52,137 nt of DNA from Stramenopiles sp. TOSAG23-2 (taxonomy: Eukaryota). Numbering within the stretch: position 1 is the stretch's first letter; each line of letters begins with the position of its first letter. A program made the translations under genes and the position numbers. The notes under the pieces were generated by a model, which saw nothing but the letters and a program-made list of their open reading frames with translations, searched no databases and was not told where the DNA came from. This document shows, piece after piece, positions 13,901 to 48,252 of this stretch. Where the stretch lies: positions 1-52,137 of the forward strand of contig LT649264.1 in assembly GCA_900128395.1 (NCBI GenBank). The letters are read 5' to 3'.

Positions 13901-16900
13901 ATGATGGAAGAATCGCCAACAGAATCCAGGCCATTATTAAATAGTAATGGTTTTGGTGGAGAAAGAGAAAAAACGTCAAGACGAGCAGCGTATGATTTTA
14001 TTGAAGGGAAAACTACAATAGGTGCATATTATGAAGGTTTTACTATCTTTTTAATTTTATTAAACGTCTTAGGCTTCGTTGTTGGAACGCAGTTTGATGC
14101 AACATATGTACCAAACGCACCTAAATGCGATTGGTGTGGAGTATGGTTTATTGGTACACATGAATTAGGGGATTCTTCCATTATGGAAATATTTACTGTT
14201 GCTGTCTTTACAGTTGATTATATTGTAAGATTTTGGGCCATCGCAGAAGAAAAAGAATACCAAGGTACATATGGTCGATTACCATATATTTATTCTTTTT
14301 TCTCTCTTGTCGATTTAGTATCTATCTTACCATTTTATATTGACTTATTATATGTAGGTGATTTGCCAGCATCTCAATTTTTACGTATGTTTCGTTTATT
14401 TCGTATGATGAGATTGGAAGGGCGATACTTAGAAGCATTTACATTGTTTGATGATGTCCTTGTGAATAATGCTCAAATCCTTGGCGTTACTGGATTTGTT
14501 GGTTTTGCTACATGGATTATTGTCTCAGCGTTGTATTATTTAGCAGAACGTACAAATAATGATATGATTTATTGCCCAGTTCCATGTGATACATTAGTGA
14601 AAAGTAAATGTCAATACGATAGCTATGGTCGTGTTTTACCAGAGACATGTGGTTGTACGAAAAAAAATCAATGTTATAATTTATATCAAAGTGTTTTGAC
14701 GTCTATGTATTTCACATTGGTTAATTTATTTGGCGAATTTCCATTAGCTGATAATCATAGTGGTTGGGGACGTGTAGTCGCTTCATTTACTGCCATTATT
14801 GCAGTTGCCATATTTGGTATACCTGCTGGTATTTTCGGTAATGGTTTCGATGAATTGTTACAAGAAAAACGTGAAGAAAAAAAGAAATTGGAAGCACAAA
14901 AACGAATGAGAAACGCTGCTATGACCGTAAAAGCAGCTACTGCATTAGGTGCGTTTGGTGGTAAAGGTATGATGTCAATGAATGCATTGCCAGAGGATGA
15001 AGAGAAGAAAGTTAAAGGTGAAAAAGAAACAATTGGCGATGAATCAACTTTTCGTGGACGTTTATTTAACTTTTTACATGCAAAAACGGAATCTGGTACA
15101 GTATTTGAATATTTCATCTTTGCATTGATTATATTAAATGTATTAGGGTTTATGTTTGAAACTACTGAATATGTGGAAAAAAGTGTTGGATGGCAAAATT
15201 TCTTAGAAGGCTTTGAAACATTTAGTGTAATTGTATTTACAATTGAATATTTGTTGAGATTATATGCAATTGGGGAAGTAGAACAATTCGATGGATTTAC
15301 CGGTCGTCTTTCTTGGATGTGGTCATTCTATGCATTAGTAGATTTACTATCTATTTTGCCATGGTACGGTGAAAAATTATTTTTATCAAATGCAACAGCA
15401 AAAAAATCCACTGGGGCAATGTTTGTAAGAGCATTGAGATTATTACGTATGTTAAAAGCAGAGCAATATACAGAGGCATTTACTATTTTAGATGACGTAG
15501 TTCGTGCACAAAGCGATGTATTAATTGTTACTGGATTTACTGCATTAGTATTTTGGATCTTTTTCTCCACATTGATGTATTATGCTGAACGTAATAATCC
15601 AGACCCAGAAATGCAATATTATTACTATTCCATTCCAGATGCAATGTGGATGACATTGTTGAATTTATCTGGTGAATCACCATTGTGCCATTTTACCACG
15701 TGGGGTAAAATCATTACTGGTGTGATTGGTATATTTGCAGTTGGTTTATTCGGTATTCCAATTGGTATCTTAGGCGCCGGCTTTGAAGATTGGGTAGATG
15801 GTGGTGATGATGATGATGAAGATGGTGATGAAGAAGAAGGGAAGAAAAATGACGATACTGCAGTTGATATGAATGGAATTGAAATTGCTAGAAAACAAAA
15901 ATCTTTCAGGCAAAATATGTTTGATTTCATGGAAGGCAAAACAAGCGCTGGGCGTTGGTTTGAAACATTAATATTTGCTTTGATCTTCATGACCATTGTA
16001 ACTACTAGCATACAAACTGTTGATAGTATTGGATGCAGTCAAGTACAAGAAAAAGATGAAAAAAGTATTTGTATGTGGATGGACACATTGGAATTGATTG
16101 CCGTATTGTTTTTCACTGTTGAATATCTTGCACGTTTATACGTATTGCCAGAAGATCCGGAATATGAAGGATACCCTGGTTCCATAGGAAAGATTGTGTG
16201 CTACATTTTTTCCTTTTATTCAATTATTGATTTATTAGCAATTGTACCATTTTACATTGCATCTGCATTACCAGGTGGTATCGTTGATCAGTACGATAAT
16301 TACTTCCGTTTATTACGTATCATGCGTTTATTTAAATTAGATAAATACGTACCATCAATCAGTTTGTTGGACGATGTTATTCGTGCTAAGAAAGCGCCGT
16401 TAATGGTCACTGGCTTTGCAGCTGGTGTATTGACTGTGTTATTCTCTGCATTAATGTATTTAACTGAATACAAAGATTATGCAAATGATATTGATCCTAT
16501 TCCATTAGATGGTTGCAACGGCAATTGTACACAAGCAAATCGTTTTAAAGATGTTTTCATGGCAATGCCAGTTACGATTATCCATCTTACGGGTGACTTT
16601 CCAATTGTAAACTACGACACGTGGGCCCGCGTCAATTGCTTCTTCATGGTCGTAATTGGTGTTGGTTTGGTTAGTATACCAGCTGGTTTGATTGCATCTG
16701 GTTTCTCCGATGTTGTTGAAGAATCTCAAGGTGCTGATACAAAAGTAGCTGAAAATTATGGAGGTTGGGAATTGCCAACGCAAAAACCTGTTAGTCCATG
16801 TTGCGATGGTTTGATGCAAAGTGTCAATGATTTCTTAAATGCAGAGGAAGGCTTAGGCAAATGGTTTAGCAATTTCATCTTTGTATTGATTATAGTAAAC

Positions 16901-17620
16901 ATCTTTGCAGTTGTATTAGAGACCATTCCAGACATCAATGAAAGTTGGGGAGAACATGCATTTAATACGTTCGAGGCATTTTCAGTGATTGTATTTACAA
17001 TTGAATATCTAGGCCGTGTTTTCAGTGTTGTGAAAGATCCAGAACATTTCTATTCAAGATATTTCTATTGCACGACGTTTTTTGGCGTTGTTGACTTCAT
17101 AGCGGTAGCACCATGGTATGTGCAACAAATCTTTTATCCGAATGATCATGACATGGCAGTCATTTTCAGAGTATTCCGTCTATTCCGTGTCCTTCAATTA
17201 GAGCATTTCTGTGAGGCATTTACAAAATTGGATGATGTATATCGTGAATCTGAAAATGTTCTGAAAGCAACAGGATTAATGGCATTAATTGTATGGTTAT
17301 TGTCAGGTGTTTTATTTTACTTGTTTGAGAAAAATAATTTAAATTGGAGAGAAGACTCGTGTACTGTCCAAGAATTCAACGATCATAAAGCTGGATGCAA
17401 TAGTAGTTTTGGTGATATTCCAAGTGCGTTGTATTTCACTGCTATTTTCCTAGGTGGGGAGTGGGCAAAAACTGACTTCAGTTTCCCTGGAAAATTGTTA
17501 TGTGTATTTTTATGTGTAGCTGGTATTGCTATTTATGCAGTACCAATAGGTGCATTATTTGATGCATTTGGTGAAATTCTTGGAGGTGATGATGATGAGG
17601 AGGAGGATGGTGATGATTAG
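13901..17620 (+). CDS. Four-domain (4x6TM) voltage-gated cation channel made of Kv-like repeats with non-K+ filters
   Basis: Four homologous units, each with S2 (FT[VI][DE]Y..R), S3 (VD..[SA]I.P[FW]Y), Arg-rich S4, S5 ending Y..E, pore helix + filter and S6 with IP/VP-x-G. Confidence 0.9.
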   Translation: MMEESPTESRPLLNSNGFGGEREKTSRRAAYDFIEGKTTIGAYYEGFTIFLILLNVLGFVVGTQFDATYVPNAPKCDWCGVWFIGTHELGDSSIMEIFTVAVFTVDYIVRFWAIAEEKEYQGTYGRLPYIYSFFSLVDLVSILPFYIDLLYVGDLPASQFLRMFRLFRMMRLEGRYLEAFTLFDDVLVNNAQILGVTGFVGFATWIIVSALYYLAERTNNDMIYCPVPCDTLVKSKCQYDSYGRVLPETCGCTKKNQCYNLYQSVLTSMYFTLVNLFGEFPLADNHSGWGRVVASFTAIIAVAIFGIPAGIFGNGFDELLQEKREEKKKLEAQKRMRNAAMTVKAATALGAFGGKGMMSMNALPEDEEKKVKGEKETIGDESTFRGRLFNFLHAKTESGTVFEYFIFALIILNVLGFMFETTEYVEKSVGWQNFLEGFETFSVIVFTIEYLLRLYAIGEVEQFDGFTGRLSWMWSFYALVDLLSILPWYGEKLFLSNATAKKSTGAMFVRALRLLRMLKAEQYTEAFTILDDVVRAQSDVLIVTGFTALVFWIFFSTLMYYAERNNPDPEMQYYYYSIPDAMWMTLLNLSGESPLCHFTTWGKIITGVIGIFAVGLFGIPIGILGAGFEDWVDGGDDDDEDGDEEEGKKNDDTAVDMNGIEIARKQKSFRQNMFDFMEGKTSAGRWFETLIFALIFMTIVTTSIQTVDSIGCSQVQEKDEKSICMWMDTLELIAVLFFTVEYLARLYVLPEDPEYEGYPGSIGKIVCYIFSFYSIIDLLAIVPFYIASALPGGIVDQYDNYFRLLRIMRLFKLDKYVPSISLLDDVIRAKKAPLMVTGFAAGVLTVLFSALMYLTEYKDYANDIDPIPLDGCNGNCTQANRFKDVFMAMPVTIIHLTGDFPIVNYDTWARVNCFFMVVIGVGLVSIPAGLIASGFSDVVEESQGADTKVAENYGGWELPTQKPVSPCCDGLMQSVNDFLNAEEGLGKWFSNFIFVLIIVNIFAVVLETIPDINESWGEHAFNTFEAFSVIVFTIEYLGRVFSVVKDPEHFYSRYFYCTTFFGVVDFIAVAPWYVQQIFYPNDHDMAVIFRVFRLFRVLQLEHFCEAFTKLDDVYRESENVLKATGLMALIVWLLSGVLFYLFEKNNLNWREDSCTVQEFNDHKAGCNSSFGDIPSALYFTAIFLGGEWAKTDFSFPGKLLCVFLCVAGIAIYAVPIGALFDAFGEILGGDDDEEEDGDD

Positions 17621-17915
17621 GGTGTTTTCATTTTAACAAATAGAGTAGGTTTTGCGTGTTGCATACGTCTAGAGAAAGATGTACGTATGTGCGTGTGTGT
17701 ATGTGTGAAAAAGAAAATAAAGAGAGAGAGTGTGCAGTGTGCAGTGATATGTTCTCTATGCATCATATATGGTATCATGTACGAGTACACATTTAAAATT
17801 TTCTTTAAAAATTATATATGATAACACACGTAAATAAAGATATGAGATGTAAATGATACTTCATTTTTTAAATAAAAAAATAATAAATTTAAAATATATA
17901 AATGCACATATTTTT

Positions 17916-18893
17916 TTAATCTTTTTTTTTACTCCTCTTCTTCTTCTCTGTCTTCTTCTTTGCCTTCTTCTTTTCCTTCTTTGTATCCTGCTTTGAGTCA
18001 GACTCTCTAAATTCATCCAATGTGATCTCATTCAATTTTTTCTGATTAGGAACCAAATGTCCATTTTGAAAAATTGTCAATGTTTTGAATGGCCTCATCG
18101 TAAAGCTTGCTAAAATTAATATACCTGAAACAAAATGAAAGATTCTTTCAAAATACATACACGATAATGGAACTGGGTATAGTGTATTATTTGCCAATAT
18201 TGTCATTCCAGTTGCGATCAATAAATGATAAATCCCAACAAAATAATACATATGTTGTAATTGCATTGATGGTATTGACCAATATATATAAAACATACCA
18301 ATTACTAATGTACAGATACCATAACTTCGTAGCCCTAAATGCCTTGTATCAGCATTTGAAAATTGAAGATCATAAACAAATTTATTATCAATAATTTTAT
18401 GCTCTGGTGAAAATACTAGAAACACGCCATATATGCCTTCAATAAAACCAGAAATTTGTACGAGTGCTTTTGTCCATTCTAAGTTCAAACTGTTTACAAG
18501 GCGATCGTCAAATGTCTTTACAAGGTTGTCTTTGTGTGTAAAATATGCATATAATGTAAATAAACCACATGGCAAATCCAACGCACCTCCTTGAAGAACA
18601 GACCAAGGTGAACCAAACATGACAATAATTAAAGTTAGCCAAAATGGTACAGTTGAACGTCCTAGACCAGTTGTATACATCATCTCATAGATATTGTAAT
18701 AGAATGCAGGCATATAAAAGCATACACATAGTAGTCCTTCCTTTAAACCATTTAGACGATATGGTGCCGGGTGTTCATCCTCAACTTTTAATCCCATTGC
18801 ATCTAATACAGCAAAATCTGGTCCCATAAATAAATATGCTACTATCCACATGTATGGTATAAATATTAAAATGGATATTCTCAATGAATCCAT
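17916..18893 (-). CDS. Hypothetical multi-pass membrane protein with Lys-rich tail ending KKKD (possible KKxx ER-retrieval signal)
   Basis: 325-aa ORF with about 7 hydrophobic segments; no family recognised. Confidence 0.7.
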   Translation of the reverse strand: MDSLRISILIFIPYMWIVAYLFMGPDFAVLDAMGLKVEDEHPAPYRLNGLKEGLLCVCFYMPAFYYNIYEMMYTTGLGRSTVPFWLTLIIVMFGSPWSVLQGGALDLPCGLFTLYAYFTHKDNLVKTFDDRLVNSLNLEWTKALVQISGFIEGIYGVFLVFSPEHKIIDNKFVYDLQFSNADTRHLGLRSYGICTLVIGMFYIYWSIPSMQLQHMYYFVGIYHLLIATGMTILANNTLYPVPLSCMYFERIFHFVSGILILASFTMRPFKTLTIFQNGHLVPNQKKLNEITLDEFRESDSKQDTKKEKKKAKKKTEKKKRSKKKD

Positions 18894-33238: not shown

Positions 33239-36200
33239 CTATTTCCGTGCTCTAATTTTAATTTTCTCATGCAATGTCTTGCAGAATATACTTGCTTTAC
33301 CTTCCGGCCAATATCCGGTATCTTTAAGTGATGCAAAATTTATACCCACTAAATCATTGCCACCATCGCTATTCGCATTTTCAATATATTTTTTTATTTT
33401 TATAACATAATATTTCAAATAATGCACAACTTCCTGTTTGTTTTCAACAGGAACATGGTTCTTTAAGATATTTAATAAGTTATTTGCAATCATTTCTTCA
33501 CAATTTTCCATTCTTCGTAAACATTTGTAAAACTCTCCCGGATAAACCCAATCTACATTTGGCATCAATTTTGAACGATATTTATGAAGCAATGCACTTA
33601 TTTGTATGCATACATATAGAAGATTGATACTAATTTCATGATCAATTTTAATGGATTCAACTAAATGTTTGTTTGAAACATTTACCAAACTGGCCAACAG
33701 TGAATGTACTTGGTACTTGGTACTTGTAATTTTCTTTACATATTCAACAACTTTTATGTCGTCAGTATTTTCAATTCTGCTTTTACGATCATTTGCTACA
33801 AATAATTCAACAATATATTTAAATATTTCGACGCAATTCCCTGTTAATCTATGATCATACACCATGGTTTTTAAACTTGGAGTTAACCTCCTCTTCAATC
33901 CATATAACAAACCAGGATACTTCAAAATGTTTTCGATCAACGTTTTAGATCCTTCAAGATCCGTATCTTCGTCATCAATTACATTTTGAAAGATATATGA
34001 TAAAATAATCGAAGCATTTACGGCTATTCCCACAGGTAAATTACCACGCAGTAAAACCATTCCACAAATTTTAATAATATTTGATTCGAGTATAATTTGT
34101 CGTGTATATTTATACAATGCTAATGATCCTAAAATGGTAGAAAATTTAGTCATTAAAAGTTGCGGTATAGTTTTCTTATCATCAATCGAATTTGAAGTCG
34201 TTGGAGACTTTGCACCTTTCTTAGCTTTACCAAGATTATAAACACATTTCTCAAATATCCGAACAGCAAATTTACAAAAGTCTATCAATTGTTTTTCTCC
34301 AATTGAATTATTATTATTATTATTATCCTCTAACTTCTTGCTGTGCAAAGAATGAAATATACTTCGTGGCAGTTCATTTATTGGATCTTCTTTATGTATC
34401 AATTGTACGAAAATCGTTAAAAAAATAGTTGCATTTTCTTGTGTAAATGAAAATATCGACGCTGTAAAAAAGCAATAGGAAAGGTGTGGTGTGCCTTTAA
34501 TTTTAGCAATGCCACGGAAAATACTAGTTTCAAAATCTTTCATTTGTTTCGTTTTTGATTTCTTTAATACATTTTGTATTAATAATGCCCAGCTACCGAT
34601 TGTTTTTCGAAATTCAACTGGAATTATATTTTCTTGTTCCATTTGCTCTTCATTTGGCAACGTTAAATCAAAAATTTCGCAGAAAAGTGGCGTGGATCGC
34701 AAAATGATATTAAAGCCATTATTTGAATTTTCATTTTCATCAAATTGTAACAATTTTGTAAATGTTACTCTAATTTTACTCATGATGGAAAAAAATGCAT
34801 GGAAAGATCTTGCCATTCCATTTAAAGCGTATTTTTTAGTTATGCTTGAATCGATTTTCATAGATATAAAATCAGAGGCAATTACATTTACAAATTCTAA
34901 AAATTCCATTGTTAAATTTGATATTTCTTGTACAACAGTTATTGTATCATTACAATTATTAATAACTATATCATCGTGGTTTTTGTCTAAAATATTTATA
35001 TATGCATGTATTAATGAATTGCCCTTGGTTATAAGTGTATTTGTTTCTTTTCGTTTTTCATCATCTGCCTTATCAATATTTTGAAATTGATTTTTTAAAA
35101 ACATAAGTGCGCTTCGATATGAATGTGGCAAGACCTTGAATAAAAATGTCTTCTTATTCTCTTCTGTATTGTTTACATCGTCGTCTTGTAGCAAATAATT
35201 TTGTCCATTGATGTAAAAATTCAACATGCTATTTTCAAGCTCCTTCGTTTCTTCGATATTGTGGACGGAACTACCAGCTTCGAGTTGAGACATGGAGGTA
35301 TCCATAGGACATATCATAGATAAGCAATGCAAGGATATATTTTTCTTTTGCACCGATGTTAATTCCATTGATAAATATAAATGAAGCAATATACTGGCAC
35401 CAATTTGATGTTGAACAGTGATAAAATCAACGTCTGCGCTTAAAACTTCTTGGATATCGGATAAAATACTGTCATATGCTATGAATGGGATTTTTCGATC
35501 GTTTATTTTGTTGTTATTAAAGTAATATTCAAGGCGATCGCATAGTTCTGAATGTGATTTGGAATTGCGAATATAATTTGGTAAAACCCGTGTGTCCACA
35601 TCCGCTGGATTTACATCTTTTGAAGTTATCGTCGATATTTTTTCAGGTTTACTGCTACTTCTGTCTTCATCGGTAATAGTTTCTTTAGATTCATTTACAT
35701 CGTCACTTTCTATTAAATCGATTACATTGTATATATTAATTTCCGGCATTTCTACATCTCTTTCTTCTTCTTGTTCATCATGTACCGTATCCACTGGTAT
35801 ATTATTATTATCGCTTTGTTTTGTTGGATTTTTCAATCTATTGTTTGTCATTTTTGTTCGTTTCAATGAATTTTCTTTTTGGTTTCTTTGCATCGCATTT
35901 TTTTTTCGTTTATCCTTAGATGTTGAAGCAATCTTATTTTTCTTAGTATTATTAGAATTGCTGCCATCATTGACATTGTTTTGAGATAATACAGGAACAT
36001 TTGGTACCAATGGTATTACGATAGGTGGTTGATCTTGCACTTTTATTACGTTTTTATTCATATTATTTTGTTCAATTTTCAATACAAAATTATATATTTT
36101 AAAAGCAAATTGACTAACACAAATATTTTTTTCGTTGCTTGTTTGTTTATCTATCCAAGACGGAGAGAGATTATTATTGTTACTTTTCAAAATATTCATA

Positions 36201-36943
36201 CTTTCTTCTTGAATTTTTAAAAAGCATAATTTTTCTCCATTTGTTAACGTCAATTTGTTGCCATTATTATTATTCTCAAGTTGAAATATAAATTTACAAA
36301 CAATGTTTTCAAGTATTGTTGAGTTCAGGACGATTGAATAAAAATTTAAAATTGCAGTCGTTTGTTTTTCTTCACTTTGCAATGTAAATATAAATTTGAA
36401 GAAAAGATCAAGTATTAACTTCTTTTTATTTTTATTTGTTGCTAGTAAAAAATATAATGGGCAATACTTTGGACTATCGCGATGATTAGTTTTGACATTG
36501 ATGCCATCAATCCACAACGAACATAAAAAATCGTTACTAGTATTATTGTGGTTATATATTGTTTCTATATCTAAATTATAATATAAAACACTATAAAATG
36601 GATGACTCTTGGTAAATATAGAACGAATATGATTTTCCTCTTCTGTTGCTAGCAGTATTGGCCCTAACACCAAGTTCATATCAGCAGCATTGGTTCGAGC
36701 CTCTGTTACAAAAGACGATATTAAATTTAAAATTTGTTGACACGTTAGTTTAGAAATGATTGTAAATATTAAACTCCATTTTTTAGTATCATTTTGTTTT
36801 GGCATATTACTATCAAATGCATTTAATACTTCTTCAACAGAATAGTTTGGTATTTCATCTTCCCAATTCAATTGTTTTGTTAGTGGCGGTACAGATGATA
36901 GCATCGACGACGAAGAGGTGGATAATTTATTATTGGTTTCCAT
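33239..36943 (-). CDS. Hypothetical 1234-aa protein (disordered middle, possibly helical-repeat C-terminus)
   Basis: Long uninterrupted ORF with coding-like composition; no family recognised. Confidence 0.75.
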   Translation of the reverse strand: METNNKLSTSSSSMLSSVPPLTKQLNWEDEIPNYSVEEVLNAFDSNMPKQNDTKKWSLIFTIISKLTCQQILNLISSFVTEARTNAADMNLVLGPILLATEEENHIRSIFTKSHPFYSVLYYNLDIETIYNHNNTSNDFLCSLWIDGINVKTNHRDSPKYCPLYFLLATNKNKKKLILDLFFKFIFTLQSEEKQTTAILNFYSIVLNSTILENIVCKFIFQLENNNNGNKLTLTNGEKLCFLKIQEESMNILKSNNNNLSPSWIDKQTSNEKNICVSQFAFKIYNFVLKIEQNNMNKNVIKVQDQPPIVIPLVPNVPVLSQNNVNDGSNSNNTKKNKIASTSKDKRKKNAMQRNQKENSLKRTKMTNNRLKNPTKQSDNNNIPVDTVHDEQEEERDVEMPEINIYNVIDLIESDDVNESKETITDEDRSSSKPEKISTITSKDVNPADVDTRVLPNYIRNSKSHSELCDRLEYYFNNNKINDRKIPFIAYDSILSDIQEVLSADVDFITVQHQIGASILLHLYLSMELTSVQKKNISLHCLSMICPMDTSMSQLEAGSSVHNIEETKELENSMLNFYINGQNYLLQDDDVNNTEENKKTFLFKVLPHSYRSALMFLKNQFQNIDKADDEKRKETNTLITKGNSLIHAYINILDKNHDDIVINNCNDTITVVQEISNLTMEFLEFVNVIASDFISMKIDSSITKKYALNGMARSFHAFFSIMSKIRVTFTKLLQFDENENSNNGFNIILRSTPLFCEIFDLTLPNEEQMEQENIIPVEFRKTIGSWALLIQNVLKKSKTKQMKDFETSIFRGIAKIKGTPHLSYCFFTASIFSFTQENATIFLTIFVQLIHKEDPINELPRSIFHSLHSKKLEDNNNNNNSIGEKQLIDFCKFAVRIFEKCVYNLGKAKKGAKSPTTSNSIDDKKTIPQLLMTKFSTILGSLALYKYTRQIILESNIIKICGMVLLRGNLPVGIAVNASIILSYIFQNVIDDEDTDLEGSKTLIENILKYPGLLYGLKRRLTPSLKTMVYDHRLTGNCVEIFKYIVELFVANDRKSRIENTDDIKVVEYVKKITSTKYQVHSLLASLVNVSNKHLVESIKIDHEISINLLYVCIQISALLHKYRSKLMPNVDWVYPGEFYKCLRRMENCEEMIANNLLNILKNHVPVENKQEVVHYLKYYVIKIKKYIENANSDGGNDLVGINFASLKDTGYWPEGKASIFCKTLHEKIKIRARK

Positions 36944-37937
36944 AGTTTTGATGTTATCTTAATCTATATATATATATAGAAGATGAAATTTGATTTTACG
37001 ACTTTTTTATTATTTTTTTTTTCTTCTTCTTTTGATTGAAATTTGAAATGTGCATGCATGTGTGCATGTGCATATATGCAAAAAAGATGTTTATTATTAT
37101 GATATATGATGTGCAAAAAAGGCTGGGCCCAGGCGGCCCGGCCTCAAAAAAAATTTATGAGGCCAGGTGTCTTTAGAGTACCATTATTTATGCTTACATG
37201 GTCTTTATCCCTATCAAATATTGGTGAGTCCGTGAGGCATAGTATTATTTTTAAAAATTGTATAAAATACAGACGTCTTCATCTGTTTTTCATTTCCTAT
37301 CATATTTATACTTAACCTAGTCCTTTTCATATACTCAGTATATTTGTAGTGTTTGATATATTTGATAGGACAAATTAGGTATTTTTTGTACTTGAGAGAG
37401 CAAACTGTATTTTTTGATACCAAAAATGTCAGTCTTACTAATATATTAATATATTAGTATTATGACAACAAGCAAAAAAGAACCTATATTACATATAAGA
37501 TATATACATATTACATGCCAATATGATTAAAAATGAAATGGAAAGTATTAAAACATTGTTTATAAATGGAAAGGTAAAGGAGAGAAATGAAGTGAAGGTA
37601 CCGAAATTTGTTAATGAAAAATTTACATCATTACCAATATTGCTACGACCTATCAATAATTGGGAAGATTTGATGTCTACATGTTGATATTGTATGATAT
37701 TATTTGATATATTTGGTTCTGAATATAGGATTATATATAAGTAAATGCTATATTATAGGATAAATATTGTCAAAGATGATGATAATGGCAAGATGCATGA
37801 GTATTGAAACTAGTTTTGATGTATAGTATGTATATGATACATAGTGTTTTTTGTTAGGCCTAACGACTTGCATTCCGCTCCCTGTGGGAGATTATGGTGC
37901 TTAGTATTTTTCACCCTAGGTTTATTTAGTGTTAAAA

Positions 37938-37962
37938 GTAGGGTTCTGAGTTAGGGTTAGGG
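37938..37962 (+). repeat. Short interstitial telomere-like TTAGGG patch
   Basis: GTAGGGTTCTGAGTTAGGGTTAGGG: two perfect TTAGGG units at 37951-37962 plus one degenerate unit. Confidence 0.7.
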
Positions 37963-38869
37963 CAGAGTGTGCCATCTATGAAACAGAAGTTATAAAAGAA
38001 GCTAAAGCGTGGTACGTGTAGGAATTAATCATAATTTAAGTACGAGTAAAAATTAAAAATAAATTCATTGATGATATGTTGTTGTTAAATTAGGTGGATT
38101 AAATATTTTATATTTCGTGCTTTCAATTATTATTTGATCATTTCCACCCCCAACAAGTCCTGTTAATGGTGATAATCGAATTACTAATTTTCCGTTTAAA
38201 TAACCCGCATATTTCGATCCACTTCTAGTGACACTATTTAATACAACTTTGTATGGTTCATATATGATATTGTACGATATTAACACCTAGACCATTGACT
38301 AATTGCGAACCTAATTGTTCAAATCCATCGGATAACATGTATATATATATTAAAAATAATATTTCTGTTTCAATATTGATACAACTCAATGCTTTGAACA
38401 CAAAGATATTTGTATGCTATATATGTTTGGTACAGTATATATGTATAAATGAATTATTGCTAGTCAAAATTTGTACAGATGCGCATATTTATATGTGTTT
38501 TCTTCTATTTCTTAACGAAAAAAATTGTGGTGAGGCCCGTAGTTTTGTGCCGAGTGTCGATTATTATTCTTATATTTGGGATTTTAAGGTCATATAATAT
38601 TCTATTAATACCTTATTATATAAACTTTTAACCAAAAGATTTTTTTGCTTTAACTTATCTCGGCAGCAGAGAAAAACGTTAGTAAAATTAAAATAGTGGG
38701 TGCAGTGATAAAAAGCTAAAGCTTATAATATACTAGTCTACAGAGGTTAAAAAAAACATAAGAACAATGTTAGAAAAGAAGAAAGGTAAATACATTACAT
38801 ATACATATCAGTAATAGATATCAATATAATCGCGCAAAAATATATATATAATCATTTTGTTAACAAATT

Positions 38870-41800
38870 ATGTCGTTTTCAAAAGTAACATATGATACCA
38901 GAAGAGCAGAAGCGATTGCCCAAGAACAACTGGAAAAACAAAGGAAACTATCTGAAATTAATAAAAAAATGGCCAAAATCGAAAAAAGAGAGAAACATAT
39001 TAAAAGAAAACATGAAGAATTAATTAGTAATAGGCAACAACGTAGATTATCTGAAATGGCTCCAGCAAAGCAAATCAGTGGTTATTCATCTTTTGGTAAA
39101 GCAATAAGTCCAAAAAATGCAACAAAAGCATCTGTAGGTACATTTGGATCATCTGAAAAAAAAACTGCATCACCTCTGTCACCAACGAATAATAAGAGTA
39201 ATAATAATAATTCCCCATCGACACCAATAGTAAAATCTCAACCGCGGCGTAGAACCGTTACATTGCAAGAGCTGGAAAAGATACAAAATTTGGTTGGAGT
39301 AGATCCCGCAAATGCGATAAGAAGACAAAATGCACAAGCTCGTATTGCAGAAAAGTTAAATGCATCACGTCGTGCTTCGTCAGTTATGAAAAAAAAAATA
39401 AGTGAAACACCACCTGTAAATAAGATAAATACTACGAAGCGATACAGCATGAGCGCACGTAAAGCAGTCGATTACTCCGTGAAAACAAATACTGCAGCAA
39501 CGAAGGCCAAGAATGATCGAAGAAGGAGTGCTTTTGTAAGACGGGCACCAAGTGGTTTAATGAGTAATAAAGTAAAACGTGGTTCATTTTCAAAGGGTAG
39601 AAATATGAAACTTGACAATAATAATAACAAACGAAGAATGTCTACATATATTCCCAGTAAATTGAAACAAAATGGTGATATCGTAAAAGATAATGGAAGT
39701 AATAACGATACATCAAACCAAATCAATTACAATGAAGCAAATTCTATGACGGCGAAAGATATCAATCGCTTGCGTCAACATGCTGTCTCTAAAGCTATAT
39801 CATATGAAAAATTAGGGGTTACGGATAAGAAAAGAAAATCAAGCACAAAAATGACAGAAATCGAAAGAATGCAATTTCGTTTAAAGGAAAGCTATGAATT
39901 AATTGATCAATTATCTGAACAACTGATGCCTTTCCTACAGCAAAGCGAGCGAATGGGAATATTGCCTAAAAGCAATGATAGTGTTAATAGTAATATCACA
40001 AAGAAAAACGTAAAACAAAATACCAAAAAATCAAATAATAGCTCTGGTGGTGGAGAAACAACTCCAGCATATCGTATCATTGAAATACGTGGATTACGTC
40101 AACGTGTGCAAACGTTAGAAGATGCCGTATTAGCCAAAGAGCGTCAGATCAATCACTGGAGGAAAATAGCAGAAAATGCACAAAATTCAGAGAGTAAGTT
40201 ACTCTTTTTGATGTCCTTCTTTCTCCCTTTCCCCTCCAAATAACTATCTATATCTTTCAATATGTAAAACTAACATTTTCTTTTGTATATTGTTTTGTTA
40301 ATTTTGCAGGTTTGACAGGTCCAGAACGAAAAAATCAAAGTATAATGGCGAATAAACTACAAATAACGGAGGAACAAAATAGGGAAATGATCAAACTTAT
40401 GGATGATCTAAATGATCGTTTGGAAGAAAAAGAGCATATAATTGAAACATTAAAATCTCAAGCAAAAAGTGTAAGCTCATTAATGAAAGAAATTAAAAGA
40501 TTAGAAAAAATAGCTGGAAGAAAATCATATCAAGAAAGTTTGCAAGCACAGAATGAAGTGACAAGTATGCGATGTGCAGAATTAGAAACAAAAATAAGCA
40601 AAATAATATCTGAAAATGCATTGTTAAACGAAACTATACAAGCGTTAACTGAGAAGCATGGAGCATTGGATGAAATGCAACTTTATATGGAAAAAGAACG
40701 AGAACATTTTGAGAACGAGTTAGAAGAGAATAAGTTAAAATTCGAAAAACAAAAAGAATTGGCAAATGTTGAAATAGAAAAATTACATTTAAAAGCACAG
40801 CAAGAGAAAGATGAGGCCAAAAAATTACATGATGAATTCATAGAAACTTCAAAAATGGAACATGAAAAATGGATCGCTACTTCAATTGCATCGTATCAAG
40901 AAGATCTCAATCAAAAGAGAAATGAAGATGAAAAAAATTTGCAAAAAGAACTTTTAAAGAAAAAACATGAACATGATAAGAAATTAGCGAAGGAACTTAT
41001 AGATCATCAAATGACACTATCTAGGAAGGAGACTGATCATGAATTAAAATTATCAAAACGTGTAAATGAAATAAATGATAAAATATCCAAATCGTTGGAG
41101 GACCATGAACGATCATTAGAAGAAAGTAAGAAACAGCATGATGAAAAGTTACAAGCAGAAATGGAAACACATGCACAAGTATTAGAAGAATTCAGTTCAG
41201 AACATGCAGAAAAAATTGAAAACGTTCGAAACGAGCATGAAGAAAAATTAATAAAAGAAATCGATGAACATAAATCCAAATTAAAGGAGGATGAAGAAGC
41301 AATGCGTAAAAAAATGGATGAGGAATTTTCAGCAAAGAAAAAGGAATTTGAAAAATGGGTGGAAACACAAAAATCACTGAATGAATTAAAACGTTTAAAA
41401 GAGGAAAAAGCAATGGATGATGAAATAAAATTTCAAAAAGTAAAAGTTGAAGATGAATTGAAATGTCTTCGAGAAGCACAGGAAGGTGTATTGCAGGCAG
41501 AGAGAGAATTGTGTGAAAAACGAAATGATGAAGAAATATTGCGATGTCAGCATCATGCAAAACAAATAATAGATGAAGCAAATGATTTAAAAGAAAAAAT
41601 AGTCAAGGAAAAAGAAGCACATGAAGAATGGTTGAAATCATCAAAAGTAACACATGACATTACTATGATGGAAGAACGTGAAAAGGAGTCTAAGCGCATG
41701 AAGGAAGAACGTGACAAGCAGACATTAAATTTAGCCCAAGAAAAAGAAGAGCATCGAAAAATGTGTGAATCAATACAAATGATAACGTATAAAAATTTGG

Positions 41801-42453
41801 AATTGGAACGAGAAAAAATAAAGAACGAATGGGATAGAATTGAAGCAAATAAAAAACAAGGATTTGGTGGTTTTGTCTCTGCAGCTATTGACAGTGTAGT
41901 AGAGGAGACTGATAATAATGTACTGGTTGAAACTGATAATATTTTGGATGATCTTAGCATAAGCCGTCGTAGTAATAATCCATTTGCAATGGTAGATGAA
42001 TCGTTGAAAAAATCCCAAAGCAATTACCATACAGCAATTTCCTCATTGGAATTATTAGCATCTAAAGATATACAATATTACAACGGAAACAGTAATAACA
42101 ATAGTTTAAACAAAAGCCAATCGCCATTAAAATCCAGTCATTTGGAATCGATTCAGCAGCAGCAACAACAAATACCAAGGACTTTCGGCAATAGTCTTGG
42201 TAGTACTTTCAATAGTCCTGCCAGAAGCAATACGCAGCGTATGGTGAGTCCAAATCGACAACAAGAACACGATGATGATGTAGAAGATTGCATAGTATTA
42301 GAAGTTGACACTGCAAATGGCGGGACTGAGGAATTACGACTCTTTAAGAGTAATAACCCTAGGAAACAATTGGAAACATTTGCCAAGAAACATAATATGA
42401 GTAATGGACAAGTTCGTACAATACTTGATTATATAAATTCCAGATTTGCATGA
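38870..42453 (+). CDS. Large coiled-coil protein, two exons (38870-40193 + 40310-42453; 1155 aa)
   Basis: The 457-aa and 713-aa ORFs join in frame (...NSE-S-LTGPERK...) across a canonical intron. Confidence 0.85.
40194..40309 (+). other. Spliceosomal U2-type intron (116 nt, phase 1)
   Basis: GTAAGT donor at 40194, ACTAAC branch point at 40269-40274, T-rich tract, TTTTGCAG acceptor ending 40309; removal restores the frame. Confidence 0.9.
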
Positions 42454-42648
42454 GAGAGATATTTTAATAGTTTTTACTCTTTTACGACGAGAGATATGAT
42501 TTTCAAATTAAAATTTATAACGTTATTTATCTATGCTTACATTCTTGGTTCATATTACTCGTATATTGTATATTTTATAAAAGAAAAATTTATATTTTAC
42601 CCTCCGTAGGTGAATTTCTCCCCTCTCTCTCTTCTTTTTTTTCAGTTT

Positions 42649-42969
42649 TTAAATACTTATTGGTACTACTCCTATCATATTATATATTGTAAAATTCTGC
42701 TGATCATTATTATTTATTATGCTACCCTTGCAACTTGATATTATTGAATCCATGTTTTTGTTACTATTATTAAAGTCAAATGTTGGCAGAATAAACGAAG
42801 ACTTGCTATTCAACGTATTTACTGCCATAGAAGCTGCCCCTGTAGTTGTATGGAAACCCTGCCTTTGTTTATGACGTGGATTTTTCTTACAAATGACAAA
42901 ATTTCTACCACGCCTTTTAACTATTTTACAATGTTTACATAATCTTTTAATGGCAGATTTTGTTTTCAT
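42649..42969 (-). CDS. MRPL36: Organellar (probably mitochondrial) ribosomal protein bL36 with C-terminal extension
   Basis: [38 protein letters not shown] zinc ribbon followed by 68 extra residues. Confidence 0.9.
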
Positions 42970-43511
42970 GATTGTTTTTTAAGTATTTCAGTGTAATGTT
43001 TCTTTCCACCTTGTATATTCACTCTCACTTCTACCTATAATTGTTGCAATAACTTGTTCAGAACTTTAATACAACTGTTTGTTTTCATATATGTCTCCGT
43101 CGCTATACATATGTTATGTATTTGTTTTTTCTGAGTAGTGTTGCTAATAATGGTGTGGTTTATTCATTTAGTTGCTTTAGTAGTAAATTAAAATAATAAA
43201 AAGTGCAAAACTTGTTCTTTTTTTTTTTAGATTTTAACCTTATTATTATTATTGTGATGTCGTCAGCCTTTCGATTTTCGATTATCCCATACAATAGTAT
43301 TACCATGTTATTATAAGGTAGCAAATACAATTCAATACTATAATACTAATAATATAGACGTTGGTTTTGGAATTTTTACTATTACTACCTTTATTGCGCG
43401 AAACAGACTATTGTATAGAAATATATATGCATACTCCCATATCATTTTCAAAGTATTGTTTATTAACATACGTAACATACCAATTGCACCCATAAAGTTA
43501 TTAAAACCATC

Positions 43512-44828
43512 ATGGTGAAAAGAAAGATTTTAGATAAATCACCTGAAAAACAAAGATTGGGTGGCAAAAAGCCTTTTGCTGGTGAAAATGATATTATCAT
43601 AAATGAAACTGAATTCAATGAAGAACGAAAAGTGAAAAGTCCAATTAAAAGTCCATTACGAAAAAATATCAATACGGTATCGTTTAACCCAGCTTCTAAA
43701 AAAGGAAAACTATCATTTTTTAAGCGAAAATCGTCTAAAATCGAAAGAAAAGGGCCTGGAAAGGAAGACGATAAAATTAATGGTGTTGATGGAGAAGAAG
43801 AAAATAGAAATGTAAATATTGGATTTGAAACTGATGATACTTTAACTGGCCCATCCTCGGACGAGCATGTCAATGCGCTTTTAGAAACCAAGGAATCTAG
43901 CGATAAGGATGAAATGGATGAAAGGGTAGAAGAAGACAATGTCGTTGGCCCTGAGATTGAAATTTTACCAGAAGAACAATTTGAAATAGATAAAGAATTA
44001 GATTGGATCGAAAAGGATGCCCGGCGATTTCAAAAAGCCTTAGATAAACAGTGCAACAACTGCAATATGAAGGCTGCAAGGTGGTATTGTCATGGCTGCA
44101 ATTTCAGTTTTTGTATCCATTGTCATCAAGAAATTCATAAACGATTTGTAAAGCAATATTATAACGAAGAGCATATCGTAGAACGTATAGATGGTGGTAG
44201 CTTAGAATGTGGATTTTGTAGAAAAACTGCTTTTGATTTAAATACAAGTGGTTACACGTCCTATCAAAGCACTTATAAAAAAAATTACGAGAATAATTTA
44301 AAAGAAGCGTTGCGCAAAGGTGAAAAAAAAGTGGTTGGTAAATTAAATGCAAATTGGGCGAAACGTGAGAAAGAGAAAAAACGTACGTTGAGAGATGATG
44401 TTAAAGAAGCAGAGTTAAGCGAAGCAATAGCAGAAATGGATGTACGAGTCAGACAAGAAATTTTGTTGCAGCATAAAACATTATTAGAACCATTTGAGTA
44501 TAATGCTTTAAATTTAGCAGCGACGAATAATGATCAGAAAAATAATGCAGCATTCAAATATGATTTTACTAGGCAAGCGGTTGTATGTAAATCGTGTATA
44601 CGATTTATGAATACTAATCCTAGATTTAAACGAAAAAGTATACAAATTGAGGCATACGCTGCCCCAACACCATATTTAGATCCAACTGCAATTGCAGGGA
44701 AAATATTAGTAAAAATAAAACGCGATAGAGAAGCTCGAATGGCAGCAGCTGCAATGGCCAAGGCAGATAAAAAGGCAGCGGAAGATTTGCAAAAAAAAAA
44801 GAAATCAAGTTTTTGTGTAATTTCATAG
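43512..44828 (+). CDS. B-box zinc-finger protein with C-terminal polybasic CaaX motif
   Basis: CNNC...WYCHGC...FCIHCHQEIH...H; C-terminus KKKKSSFCVIS. Confidence 0.8.
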   Translation: MVKRKILDKSPEKQRLGGKKPFAGENDIIINETEFNEERKVKSPIKSPLRKNINTVSFNPASKKGKLSFFKRKSSKIERKGPGKEDDKINGVDGEEENRNVNIGFETDDTLTGPSSDEHVNALLETKESSDKDEMDERVEEDNVVGPEIEILPEEQFEIDKELDWIEKDARRFQKALDKQCNNCNMKAARWYCHGCNFSFCIHCHQEIHKRFVKQYYNEEHIVERIDGGSLECGFCRKTAFDLNTSGYTSYQSTYKKNYENNLKEALRKGEKKVVGKLNANWAKREKEKKRTLRDDVKEAELSEAIAEMDVRVRQEILLQHKTLLEPFEYNALNLAATNNDQKNNAAFKYDFTRQAVVCKSCIRFMNTNPRFKRKSIQIEAYAAPTPYLDPTAIAGKILVKIKRDREARMAAAAMAKADKKAAEDLQKKKKSSFCVIS

Positions 44829-44957
44829 CATATATATGATATTATGATCAGGAGAAAGGAATTTTACAAAAATTTTTTTAATTTTTTTAATATATAAAAA
44901 TAATACGAGTATAAATAAAAACAAAAAGATATAGCTTTTATACAGACACGCGCATTT

Positions 44958-47483: not shown

Positions 47484-48252
47484 TGCAACTATTTAATACT
47501 GTAACAGTGAATTCAACGAACGTCTCAACACTTTTGTATTTATATATTCTATATCTATCTTTATCGCATATTTATTCTGTACGTATGTACATATATATAA
47601 TAGCAATACATATATATATAATATATATGTAAACTATTGATTCATCAAGAGTATATATGTAATAAAACCAATAAAAACAATTATTGGTTACCCCTATATA
47701 TTTAAATTGTGTTTACATAGGTTAATGTTATTGTCAAAACTTCTTCAAAAACACTGATGAGCTTGTCTCCTCCCCCCCCACTTTTATTAACTTCTTTTGT
47801 ATAAATACGAGGATTTTTCTTAAGCGTGTGTCCCTGCTATCACTATAGCTGCTATGTTCATGGAAAACAAAACCATTTCTTTTACTTGAAGAAGTAGAAA
47901 TTATTTATAGAAATCTAAATCCAGAAGCACAGAAGTGCAGAAGCACCACATGGCAATAAAGCTAAACTATATTGATAGGGAAAGTTTTAGTTTTATACCT
48001 GCTAATATACCCATATCAAAAAATCATTTGCACATTTTTTATTTTTTATAATAAATAGTGCAACAAATAAACATATATATATCATATACTAATTAGTTTA
48101 TATTTCCAAGATACTGTACTGTCGGTATGTATTTAATCAAGATTCAAATTAATTCGATTACAAAGTAAAAGGACTGACAAAGAATTCAAATCGTATCCAT
48201 ACATACACAGACATACTACACAATTCTGTATTATTAAAGTATTGCATTTATT

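Follow-up and report, generated by a model that had tools for sequence, protein, structure and literature searches.

A putative four-repeat, single-chain voltage-gated cation channel with Kv-type repeats and an acidic filter ring in algae and other protists

Four-domain channels and their closest described relatives

Four-domain channels are usually presented as the product of one ancient invention, that of the Cav/Nav lineage, and the pore module of Cav, Nav and NALCN channels consists of a P1 helix, a filter of the T-x-E/D-x-W type and a P2 helix. Kv7 (KCNQ) channels are tetramers of single 6-TM subunits, whose filter reads TIGYG and whose C-terminal calmodulin/assembly region is long. Concatenation of Kv-like units is represented by the two-repeat Kv-like channels, which have TVGY/FG filters, form repeat-specific clades and have not been found in diatoms (PMC7576140). 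Four repeats also evolved independently of the Cav/Nav lineage in CNGK, described in PMC7576140 and PMC4749565 as a K+-selective member of the CNBD-channel group that is present in animals and choanoflagellates and carries a cyclic nucleotide-binding domain (CNBD) after each repeat. For CNG channels, the relevant part of PMC4555469 describes the Glu of the TIGETPPP filter as governing Ca2+ block and permeation, and the NaK2CNG-E pore (TVGETPPP) as non-selective. EukCatA/BacNav-like channels mediate voltage-gated Na+/Ca2+ entry in diatoms and have been proposed to replace Cav in pennates (PMC11085791); the BacNav type is single-domain, with two pore helices (P1 and P2) and a TLESW-type filter (PMC5888156). 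Surveys have concluded that four-domain voltage-gated channels were lost in pennate diatoms (PMC11085791, PMC5888156).

Here we analyze a channel gene in a window of 52,137 nucleotides, the entire stretch of contig LT649264.1 from Stramenopiles sp. TOSAG23-2 that was examined. On balance, the product of this gene is likely to be a single-chain, pseudo-tetrameric, 24-TM voltage-gated cation channel from a family that we did not find described. The protein resembles each of the systems above in some respects, in particular the two-repeat channels in the concatenation of Kv-like 6-TM units in one polypeptide and CNGK in its four repeats, which would likewise have arisen outside the Cav/Nav lineage, although, unlike CNGK, it contains no CNBD detectable by Pfam scan.

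Gene layout and Kv-type kinship of the repeats

The gene occupies positions 13901..17620 of the forward strand, to which all coordinates given here refer, and is a complete ORF of 1239 aa with an ATG start and no internal stops. Homologs that are 62-67% identical over 98-99% coverage are colinear with the predicted protein from the N-terminus (M..E.TPLL) onwards over its whole length, which indicates a complete gene model with no introns predicted. In a Pfam scan, the Ion_trans domain (PF00520) was found in four stretches (E 7.7e-69; score 232 bits, cut-off 25) and no other family scored above the cut-off in the 1239-aa protein; the intact ORF and the four stretches agree with the preliminary description of the locus, in which four tandem 6-TM units had been recognized within this length. 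The HMM-based assignment places repeat I at aa 31-325 (13991..14875), repeat II at aa 383-633 (15047..15799), repeat III at aa 684-941 (15950..16723) and repeat IV at aa 991-1228 (16871..17584), with linkers of about 50 residues each and a tail of about 20 residues after the last S6; repeat I encompasses S1-S6, and its S5-P turret is long and Cys-rich. Pairwise identity among the four repeats is 26-36% (BLASTP E 1.7e-30 to 2.5e-50), which at the sequence level indicates kinship far beyond chance. An AF2 model of aa 28-1227 (pLDDT 82.2, pTM 0.81) contains six TM helices per repeat together with an S4-S5 linker helix of 10-16 residues.

Similarity searches against PDB consistently retrieved Kv channels, in line with the earlier assignment of the repeats to the Kv type. 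The whole protein yielded 71 matches, of which the best 60 are all Kv (top match Kv7.1, E 2.4e-19), and the 60 matches listed for the family profile are likewise all Kv, with E-values from 7.7e-35 (Kv7.1) to 1.8e-18. For every repeat, Kv7, Kv4 or Kv2 channels are the nearest relatives of known structure, with E-values of about 1e-8 to 1e-19: the top match is Kv7.2 for repeat I (E 2.7e-17; 56/56 matches are Kv), Kv7.1 for repeat II (E 2.4e-19), Kv7.2 for repeat III (E 3.3e-9; 59 Kv among the 60 matches listed) and Kv4.3 for repeat IV (E 4.6e-8). Repeat IV matches Kv4 and Kv2 at 4.6e-8 to 2.8e-5 and Cav1.1 at 0.013-0.02, the former of these two values marking the sole Cav match among the PDB matches listed. 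Repeat II aligns with Kv7.1 at the pre-S1 segment 'RLFNFLHAKT' and at the S6 segment 'FGIPIGILGAGF'; the S6 motif P-x-G-I-L-G-x-G-F is visible in the Kv7.1 alignment, and the Kv7-type pre-S1 motif is recognizable by eye in the other three repeats. Judged by these matches and motifs, all four repeats are of the Kv rather than the Cav/Nav type and appear most similar to Kv7/KCNQ, the channel type ranked first among the PDB matches listed for the whole protein, the family profile and each of repeats I-III. The features in common with Kv7 include the pre-S1 motif, the S4 ladder, the long S4-S5 linker, the pore-helix W and the S6 motif P-A/I-G-I-L-G-x-G-F. In contrast to Kv7, four non-identical repeats are joined in one chain, the filters lack GYG and are two residues shorter, the chain ends some 20 residues past the last S6, and the Pfam scan detected no KCNQ C-terminal domain.

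Voltage sensors, S6 hinges and the acidic filter ring

A script run on the window, combined with family conservation, located an S4 segment in each repeat: LRMFRLFRMMRL in repeat I (aa 161-172; 14381..14416; R162, R165, R168 and R171), VRALRLLRMLK in repeat II (15425..15457; R510, R513, R516 and K519), FRLLRIMRLFKL in repeat III (16304..16339; R803, R806, R809 and K812) and FRVFRLFRVLQL in repeat IV (aa 1089-1100; 17165..17200; R1090, R1093 and R1096). Throughout a set of 91 full-length relatives, all four repeats keep the Arg/Lys ladder with a charge at every third position, the S2 Phe, the S2 acidic residue and the S3 Asp, and D481, D777, D1065, R806 and R809, for example, are each present in 91/91; at the filled positions of the repeat I S4, R162 and R165 are found in 90/90, R168 in 89/90 and R/K171 in 85/90. 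All four repeats thus carry the full voltage-sensor signature, with an intact charge-transfer center. The S6 hinge P-x-G is also present in all four (GIPAG at 306, GIPIG at 618, SIPAG at 925 and AVPIG at 1213). The Arg-rich S4 and Kv-like S6 that had been reported for each repeat were recovered by the script, and every motif, residue and nucleotide quoted in that report proved exact.

The filters, as located by the window script, the family motif (NLFGE[FY]PL for filter I) and the model, are NLFGEFP in repeat I (aa 275-281; 14723..14743), with E279 at nt 14735; NLSGESP in repeat II (aa 588-594; 15662..15682), with E592 at nt 15674; HLTGDFP in repeat III (aa 895-901; 16583..16603), with D899 at nt 16595; and FLGGEWA in repeat IV (aa 1183-1189; 17447..17467), with E1187 at nt 17459. 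GYG is absent from the entire 1239-aa protein, as the claim that no repeat has TVGYG demands, and the HMMER alignment shows a filter loop two residues shorter than that of Kv7.1. According to DSSP of the AF2 model, each repeat has a single pore helix followed by a loop of 10-11 non-helical residues and S6; a second pore helix (P2), which the preliminary description had named as a feature of Cav/Nav/NALCN channels, is present in none of the repeats, and the motif script found no T-x-E/D-x-W in the filters. The acidic residue lies at position +3 from the end of the pore helix in all four repeats, in filter blocks with pLDDT 87-90. The E-E-D-E ring proposed earlier is conserved family-wide: among 154 four-repeat relatives, the combination E/E/D/E is found in 119 and E/E/D/D in another 8. 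The columns G-E-x-P, G-D-x-P and G-E-W at the filters are invariant in the family, and in the alignments the filter loops and the S6 hinge rank among its most conserved parts. In the family member P0128, the ring positions are occupied by A/Q/N/A, so not every paralog depends on the acidic ring. HMMER aligns the filter Glu to the Tyr of GYG, the side chain of which faces away from the pore in K+ channels; hence the acidic side chains could pack behind the filter instead of lining the pore.

In all four repeats, the filter pattern x-x-G-E/D-x-P corresponds position for position to the T-I-G-E-T-P of CNG channels, as this motif is given in PMC4555469. However, the present protein lacks the C-linker and CNBD of those channels (Pfam scan; linkers of only about 50 residues), its S4 ladders are complete, and its modeled S4-S5 linker helices are long and Kv-like whereas CNBD channels have short linkers (Pozdnyakov 2020, PMC7576140). 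Furthermore, no CNG chains are among the PDB matches listed for the whole protein, the repeats and the family profile. Given these differences, the likeness of the filters to CNG is probably convergent.

Family relationships, competing explanations and proposed function

By similarity and repeat content, the protein belongs to a large protist and algal family with four repeats. Named members come from diatoms, other ochrophytes, dinoflagellates, one cryptophyte and probably Mesostigma, and the pennate diatoms with homologs include Seminavis, Nitzschia, Pseudo-nitzschia, Cylindrotheca, Epithemia and Mayamaea. The view that the type lacks functional characterization held for the main texts of the literature searched, in which we found neither a description nor a functional characterization of the family; members might still be listed in the supplementary tables of the channel surveys. 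EukCatA/BacNav-like channels come from diatoms, which also hold the present family, and showed no sequence relation to its repeats among the searches made.

In trees restricted to E-type and GYG-type Kv-like repeats, each of the four repeats is orthologous to its counterparts in other family members, and a 100/99 branch separates the GYG-type repeats from all E-type repeats. The free trees give the duplication order ((III,IV),II),I; a tree constrained to I+III is not rejected by the AU test (p-AU 0.8) and fits better than the quick free tree, and we make no claim either way on the order of duplications, including the Cav/Nav-like I/III and II/IV pattern. Short E-type proteins that start with M (P0166, P0178, P0182, P0200, P0159, P0244, P0254 and P0226) branch at the base of the III and IV clades or close to it. 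We do not claim one- and two-repeat E-type proteins as intermediates because they may be fragments of unsampled four-repeat genes, and P0214 clearly represents the C-terminal half of a protein of the P0131 type. The same organisms also carry GYG-type relatives. The homologs include two-repeat GYG proteins (P0218, P0237, P0251 and P0252), from which the present protein differs in having four repeats without GYG and in its position on the opposite side of the 100/99 branch, as well as two separate four-repeat GYG proteins.

The protein shares with Cav, Nav and NALCN channels the four distinct homologous 6-TM repeats per chain, one acidic filter residue per repeat, a long Cys-rich turret in repeat I and, in Foldseek comparisons, a TMq of about 0.6, so it might be a very divergent member of that lineage (FVCC) that has the ancestral four-domain duplication in common with it, the Kv look being retained or convergent. 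The best 50 Foldseek matches of the whole model are indeed all Cav/Nav chains with four domains (TMq 0.56-0.62, E down to 2.3e-18), but the structural identity to these chains is only 11-14%. With a query of 1200 residues, Kv chains of a single repeat are at a disadvantage in such a comparison, and we therefore read the match as one of global architecture and not of origin. Although the ring is reminiscent of the Cav EEEE/EEDD locus, filter IV includes G-E-W and, in a passage of PMC6259924, an 'EEDE' site among non-animal 4x6TM channels is attributed to Verret 2010, the P2 helix and the T-x-E-x-W motif of the lineage are missing, the P-x-G hinge and the Kv7-type pre-S1 motif (aligned in repeat II, by eye elsewhere) point to Kv kinship, and the linkers and the total length of 1239 aa are short. 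The weak match of repeat IV to Cav1.1 has to be set against the absence of Cav/Nav from the 60 matches listed in both the whole-protein and the family-profile searches, in which four repeats could sum their scores. The I+III grouping, a Cav/Nav-type pattern, survives the AU test; however, the repeats retain 26-36% identity to each other, and the surveys that used Cav/Nav BLAST queries (PMC11085791, PMC5888156) evidently did not retrieve the family from pennate diatoms. Overall, we consider descent from the Cav/Nav/NALCN duplication improbable.

It is very unlikely that the protein is instead a K+-preferring, Kv-like outward rectifier with a repolarizing role like that of Kv7. Its nearest sequence relatives in PDB are K+ channels, the filter Gly is kept, and NaK2CNG-Dm is reported, in the pertinent part of PMC4555469, to be weakly K+-selective (PK/PNa ~2.7), so that CNG-type filters are not always fully non-selective; but the shortened loop without GYG does not fit, given that TVGY/FG is near-universal in Kv-like and CNBD channels and that the non-selective metazoan CNG channels (TIGE) are an exceptional clade (Pozdnyakov 2020, PMC7576140), nor does the coexistence with GYG-type relatives in the same organisms. 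Hardly any weight can be given to the view that the central pore does not conduct and that the protein is a voltage sensor or regulatory scaffold, or conducts via its voltage-sensor domains, or to the alternative that it works only in an organellar membrane with another ionic role. The loss of all four acidic residues in paralog P0128 is compatible with this view, whereas the invariant G-E-x-P, G-D-x-P and G-E-W within the highly conserved filter loops, along with the S6 hinge, speak against it, as does the sequence of repeats I, III and IV, in which Cys-rich S5-P turrets and N-x-S/T sequons can be recognized. Such turrets and sequons are typical of loops facing the outside or the lumen.

The gene product is most likely voltage-gated, non-K+-selective and Ca2+-permeable, with the selectivity predicted from the filter motif, and the gene probably belongs to an overlooked algal family of voltage-gated calcium- or sodium-permeable channels. 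We propose a tentative model of this channel, for which we infer domain swapping, gating polarity, exposure of the ring to the pore, selectivity, membrane location and physiological role. Each repeat is built from an S1-S4 sensor with an arginine ladder, a long S4-S5 linker helix, S5, one pore helix followed by a filter loop, and an S6 that carries the P-x-G hinge; the loop has the CNG-like pattern L-x-G-E/D-x-P (compare T-I-G-E-T-P) in place of T-V-G-Y-G. Membrane voltage would move the four non-identical S4 segments, and this movement would open the S6 bundle via the S4-S5 linkers in a Kv-like manner. The short filter with its acidic ring would not select for K+ and could pass monovalent cations and Ca2+, the latter possibly binding or blocking at the E/E/D/E ring, much as it does in the pores of CNG channels and NaK2CNG. 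In marine plankton, such a channel would probably serve voltage-dependent Ca2+/Na+ entry for signaling.

We tentatively suggest, as a possibility, that the family represents a further independent origin of the 24-TM four-domain channel, besides Cav/Nav/NALCN and CNGK, from a KCNQ-like ancestor in the early algal and protist radiation; the repeat identities and the E/E/D/E CNG-type filter would have been fixed since in diatoms, other ochrophytes, dinoflagellates, cryptophytes and a streptophyte alga, and the channel would provide the unrecognized voltage-gated Ca2+/Na+ entry route of plankton, pennate diatoms among them, now described as devoid of four-domain channels. If Kv-type repeats gave rise to a second large family of this plan, concatenation into fixed pseudo-heterotetramers would be a recurrent evolutionary route, and the two separate four-repeat GYG proteins point in the same direction. 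The family can also be regarded as a natural experiment in which a K+ filter turned into an asymmetric acidic cation filter. Its presence in pennates is relevant to phytoplankton physiology, and its genes are concrete candidates, open to cloning, for voltage-dependent Ca2+/Na+ entry in algae of global importance.

Assembled contigs from 14 marine runs labelled as RNA, which stem from several studies and include polyA metatranscriptomes, contain shares of 0.53-0.81 of the ORF's 31-mers, and full-length MMETSP transcripts exist for homologs. In the ESM Atlas, the diatom homolog P0027 leads only to 'Ion transport' clusters, one of which is commonest in Haptophyta, an observation that serves as a lead only. 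Precomputed Pfam assignments show EF-hand domains on the homologs P0101 and P0105 and an IQ motif on P0091 and P0107, which can be taken as Ca2+-related hints.

The channel gene and its surroundings

The channel protein is encoded at 13901-17620 on the forward strand by a single uninterrupted ORF of 1239 codons. A script run on the window sequence relocated the filter motifs of the preliminary description at the same residues and nucleotides, namely NLFGEFP in repeat I (E279, nt 14735), NLSGESP in repeat II (E592, nt 15674), HLTGDFP in repeat III (D899, nt 16595) and FLGGEWA in repeat IV (E1187, nt 17459), all on the forward strand. The script also recovered the S4 segments rich in Arg and, in S6, the motifs GIPAG, GIPIG, SIPAG and AVPIG, and the reported absence of the K+ channel signature holds for the whole protein, with 0 occurrences of GYG. 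The tandem arrangement of four channel units is borne out by the Pfam Ion_trans family, which matches in four stretches (E = 7.7e-69); beyond Ion_trans, no family scored above the curated cut-off in this Pfam scan. Pairwise identity among the four repeats is 26-36% (E = 1.7e-30 to 2.5e-50).

The window is gene-dense, with a G+C content of about 31%, and the genes around the channel gene are ordinary eukaryotic nuclear genes; they encode an EF3-like ABC protein, AAR2, a carnitine acyltransferase, GPI2 and a protein of the tubulin-tyrosine-ligase family. Over the channel gene (14001-18000) GC skew reaches 0.25 and 0.18, strongly positive values relative to most of the window. Convergent with this gene is a 325-aa ORF (17916-18893, reverse strand) that resembles a polytopic membrane protein with a Lys-rich tail; it matches no Pfam family at E ≤1e-5; the same negative result was obtained for six long ORFs (1234, 457, 713, 438, 841 and 663 aa) located at 33239-50244. 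Within the channel protein, the turrets between S5 and the pore helix are Cys-rich in repeats I (14570-14700, aa 224-266), III (16480-16560) and IV (17360-17440). The repeat I turret contains eight Cys, and two such columns are almost invariant across the family alignment; the turrets of these three repeats also contain N-x-S/T sequons, as expected for loops that face the outside or a lumen.

Sequence kinship and predicted structure of the repeats

Among sequences with a solved structure, the whole channel protein found 71 matches at E ≤0.01, the best of which is Kv7.1 (2.4e-19) and the best 60 of which are all Kv channels. The preliminary description had read the repeats as Kv-type, and matches to Kv channels indeed rank first for every repeat searched individually. 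For repeat I, all 56 matches are Kv channels (best hit Kv7.2, E = 2.7e-17), and for repeat III, Kv channels account for 59 of the 60 matches listed, again with Kv7.2 at the top (3.3e-9). Repeat IV retrieved 14 Kv4 and Kv2 matches (4.6e-8 to 2.8e-5) and four Cav1.1 entries, the latter only at E = 0.013-0.02 and over the sensor half, the remaining matches being weak or due to chance. A family profile built from 58 full-length members and run against the same structure sequences gave 90 matches, the best 60 of which are all Kv channels, from Kv7.1 (7.7e-35) down to Shaker (1.8e-18), although a four-domain target could sum the scores of four repeats. In the alignment with Kv7.1, the pre-S1 segment, S4, the tryptophan of the pore helix and the end of S6 (FGIPIGILGAGF with the Kv7.1 S6) find counterparts, and a two-residue gap falls within the filter. 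It follows from the solved-structure searches, the profile and this alignment that the repeat units are, at the sequence level, of the Kv type, with Kv7 as the nearest relative.

The structure of the channel protein was predicted with AlphaFold2 for residues 28-1227, using a 58-row alignment (model numbering equals protein numbering minus 27). The resulting four-repeat model has a pLDDT of 82.2 and a pTM of 0.81, with a pLDDT of 87-90 for the 10-residue blocks that bear the filters. In each modelled repeat, S1-S4 are followed by a distinct linker helix between S4 and S5 (10-16 residues), then S5, a single pore helix and a long S6. A non-helical loop of 10-11 residues connects the pore helix to S6, and no second pore helix was found in any repeat of the model. 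In all four repeats the acidic residue is the third after the pore helix (252, 565, 872 and 1160 in model numbering). A Foldseek comparison of the model with the PDB returned exclusively chains of four-domain Cav and Nav channels among the top 50 hits, with TMq values of 0.56-0.62 and 11-14% identity. Thus, the predicted model shows a pseudo-tetramer that is Cav/Nav-like in overall build, a likeness that is not informative on ancestry.

Extent, variation and repeat history of the family

The preliminary description had viewed a survey of homologs as a way to evaluate its proposal, and this survey revealed a large family in which the acidic ring is mostly E/E/D/E (repeats I/II/III/IV). A word-indexed search with the channel protein, in which 8000 candidates were scored, identified 158 proteins at E ≤0.001; the full-length relatives among the 120 matches listed are 35-67% identical to the query over 96-100% of its length. 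Members were found in diatoms (Seminavis robusta, with the source annotation 'gated channel subfamily KQT member 1', Nitzschia, Pseudo-nitzschia, Cylindrotheca, Epithemia, Mayamaea, Grammatophora, Skeletonema, Thalassiosira and Attheya), other ochrophytes (Tribonema, Chrysoparadoxa and Discosporangium), the cryptophyte Guillardia theta and a record labelled Mesvir1, which we take to be Mesostigma viride; cluster look-ups added Amphidinium and Symbiodinium. An exhaustive search with repeat II retrieved 5404 proteins at E ≤0.001, 1828 at ≤1e-10 and 174 at ≤1e-30.

Repeats were assigned in 263 stored proteins with family-built HMMs and the filter columns were then read. Four repeats were detected in 154 proteins, with the ring E/E/D/E in 119, E/E/D with the fourth pore absent from the record in 19, E/E/D/D in eight and other states in the remaining eight. 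The latter include four partial or odd cases (P0116, P0135, P0169 and P0247); P0128 (1313 aa), in which the ring is neutralised to A/Q/N/A (LFGAFPL, LAHQDPL, LTGNYPF and LVGAWNY) and the remaining architecture is kept; P0075 (1253 aa), with filter types III and IV in exchanged order (E/E/E/D), which may be a true rearrangement or an assembly error; and P0202 (1493 aa) and P0207 (1748 aa), with K+-type filters (TTIGYG, T[TV]GYG) in their repeats. The repeat-specific motifs NLFGE[FY]PL, NL[ST]GE.PL, HLTGD[YF]P and FL.GEW[GA] are kept even in subfamilies with 26-30% identity.

Conservation of the voltage sensors was assessed in 91 relatives with a length of 1100 residues or more, selected from 121 stored proteins; the 30 shorter ones were excluded. 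The S4 ladder (R162, R165, R168 and R/K171 in repeat I; K/R510, R513, R516 and R/K519 in II; R803, R806, R809 and K812 in III; R1090, R1093 and R1096 in IV), the S2 Phe (F103, F446, F738 and F1032), the S2 acid and the S3 Asp (D138, D481, D777 and D1065) are near-invariant in this alignment, so that all four repeats look like working voltage sensors.

For phylogenetic analysis, 17 four-repeat proteins with acidic filters were hand-picked to span the subfamilies (67 repeats, one with short HMM coverage being left out), together with 18 repeats from eight GYG-bearing relatives among the matches. In the careful tree, a branch with 100/99 support separates all repeats with acidic filters from the GYG repeats; repeats IV and III form clades (100/98 and 98/89, respectively), the repeat II clade covers 15 of the 17 proteins, and repeat I is a single group in 58% of the bootstrap trees. 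The quick tree is consistent with this topology. Given the repeat-specific groups in both trees, the order of the four repeats was fixed once, ahead of the diversification of the family. Unconstrained trees unite III with IV, and the AU test does not reject a tree constrained to unite I with III (p-AU 0.8). The apparently complete two-repeat proteins P0166, P0178, P0182 and P0200 (588-710 aa, with an M start and both repeats whole) combine filters of types III (G-D-x-P) and IV (G-E-W) and sit close to the base of the corresponding clades. They could represent relatives that assemble as dimers, or else pieces of four-repeat genes that have not been sampled. In the quick tree, the repeats of P0202 group with one another (100), as do those of P0207 (100), and these proteins look as if Kv-like units had been joined into four-repeat K+ channels on further, separate and more recent occasions. 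These trees cover only acidic-filter repeats of the family and repeats of GYG-bearing relatives, and the proposed independence of the family from the Cav/Nav duplication accordingly rests on sequence kinship and the structure model.

Filter chemistry, previous reports and expression

As the preliminary description had it, the acidic filter is shortened: the loop L-x-G-E/D-x-P is two residues below T-I-G-Y-G-D, and it corresponds residue for residue to T-I-G-E-T-P of CNG channels. The latter are non-selective cation channels in which the filter glutamate causes Ca2+ block that becomes stronger upon Asp substitution, and the NaK pore with TVGETPPP is likewise non-selective and blocked by Ca2+ (PMC4555469). 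TVGY/FG is near-universal in Kv-like and CNBD channels, with the exception of metazoan CNG (TIGE), and S4-S5 linkers are long in Kv-like channels and short in CNBD channels (Pozdnyakov 2020, PMC7576140). Long S4-S5 linkers and the lack of a CNBD set the channel protein apart from CNBD channels; it therefore joins a filter of the CNG type to a Kv-type chassis, with convergence as the simplest account. We propose that it would be a voltage-gated, non-K+-selective cation channel in which Ca2+ acts as a permeant or blocking ion. This prediction carries a caveat because HMMER places the filter Glu opposite the Tyr of GYG, the side chain of which does not face the pore in K+ channels. Some homologs have EF-hand or IQ domains, as seen in precomputed Pfam assignments and an Atlas cluster; by Pfam, EF-hand families are fused to the channel in P0101 and P0105, and the calmodulin-binding IQ motif in P0091 and P0107. 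Such domains fit a Ca2+ link and are not specific to it.

Full-text literature searches, supplementary tables aside, turned up no account of a family that combines four Kv-like repeats with an acidic filter. Four-domain channels have been gathered with Cav, Nav, NALCN and Cch queries (Pozdnyakov 2018), and the main text of that study mentions neither diatoms nor an E/E/D/E motif. Pennate diatoms and Odontella are stated to lack four-domain channels in a 2024 diatom survey (PMC11085791) and a 2018 PeerJ article (PMC5888156). PMC6259924 cites Verret 2010 for an 'EEDE' site in 4x6TM channels from outside the animals. A member of the family may have been catalogued before.

The original observation is judged to be real. 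The Kv-type character of the repeats and their conserved, asymmetric acidic filter are well supported, and the family is large and expressed, and is apparently undescribed. Sampled 31-mers of the ORF occur at shares of 0.53-0.81 in the assembled contigs of 14 RNA-recorded runs, most of which are polyA-selected or other marine metatranscriptomes; overall, there are 20 holders of these 31-mers from 13 studies.
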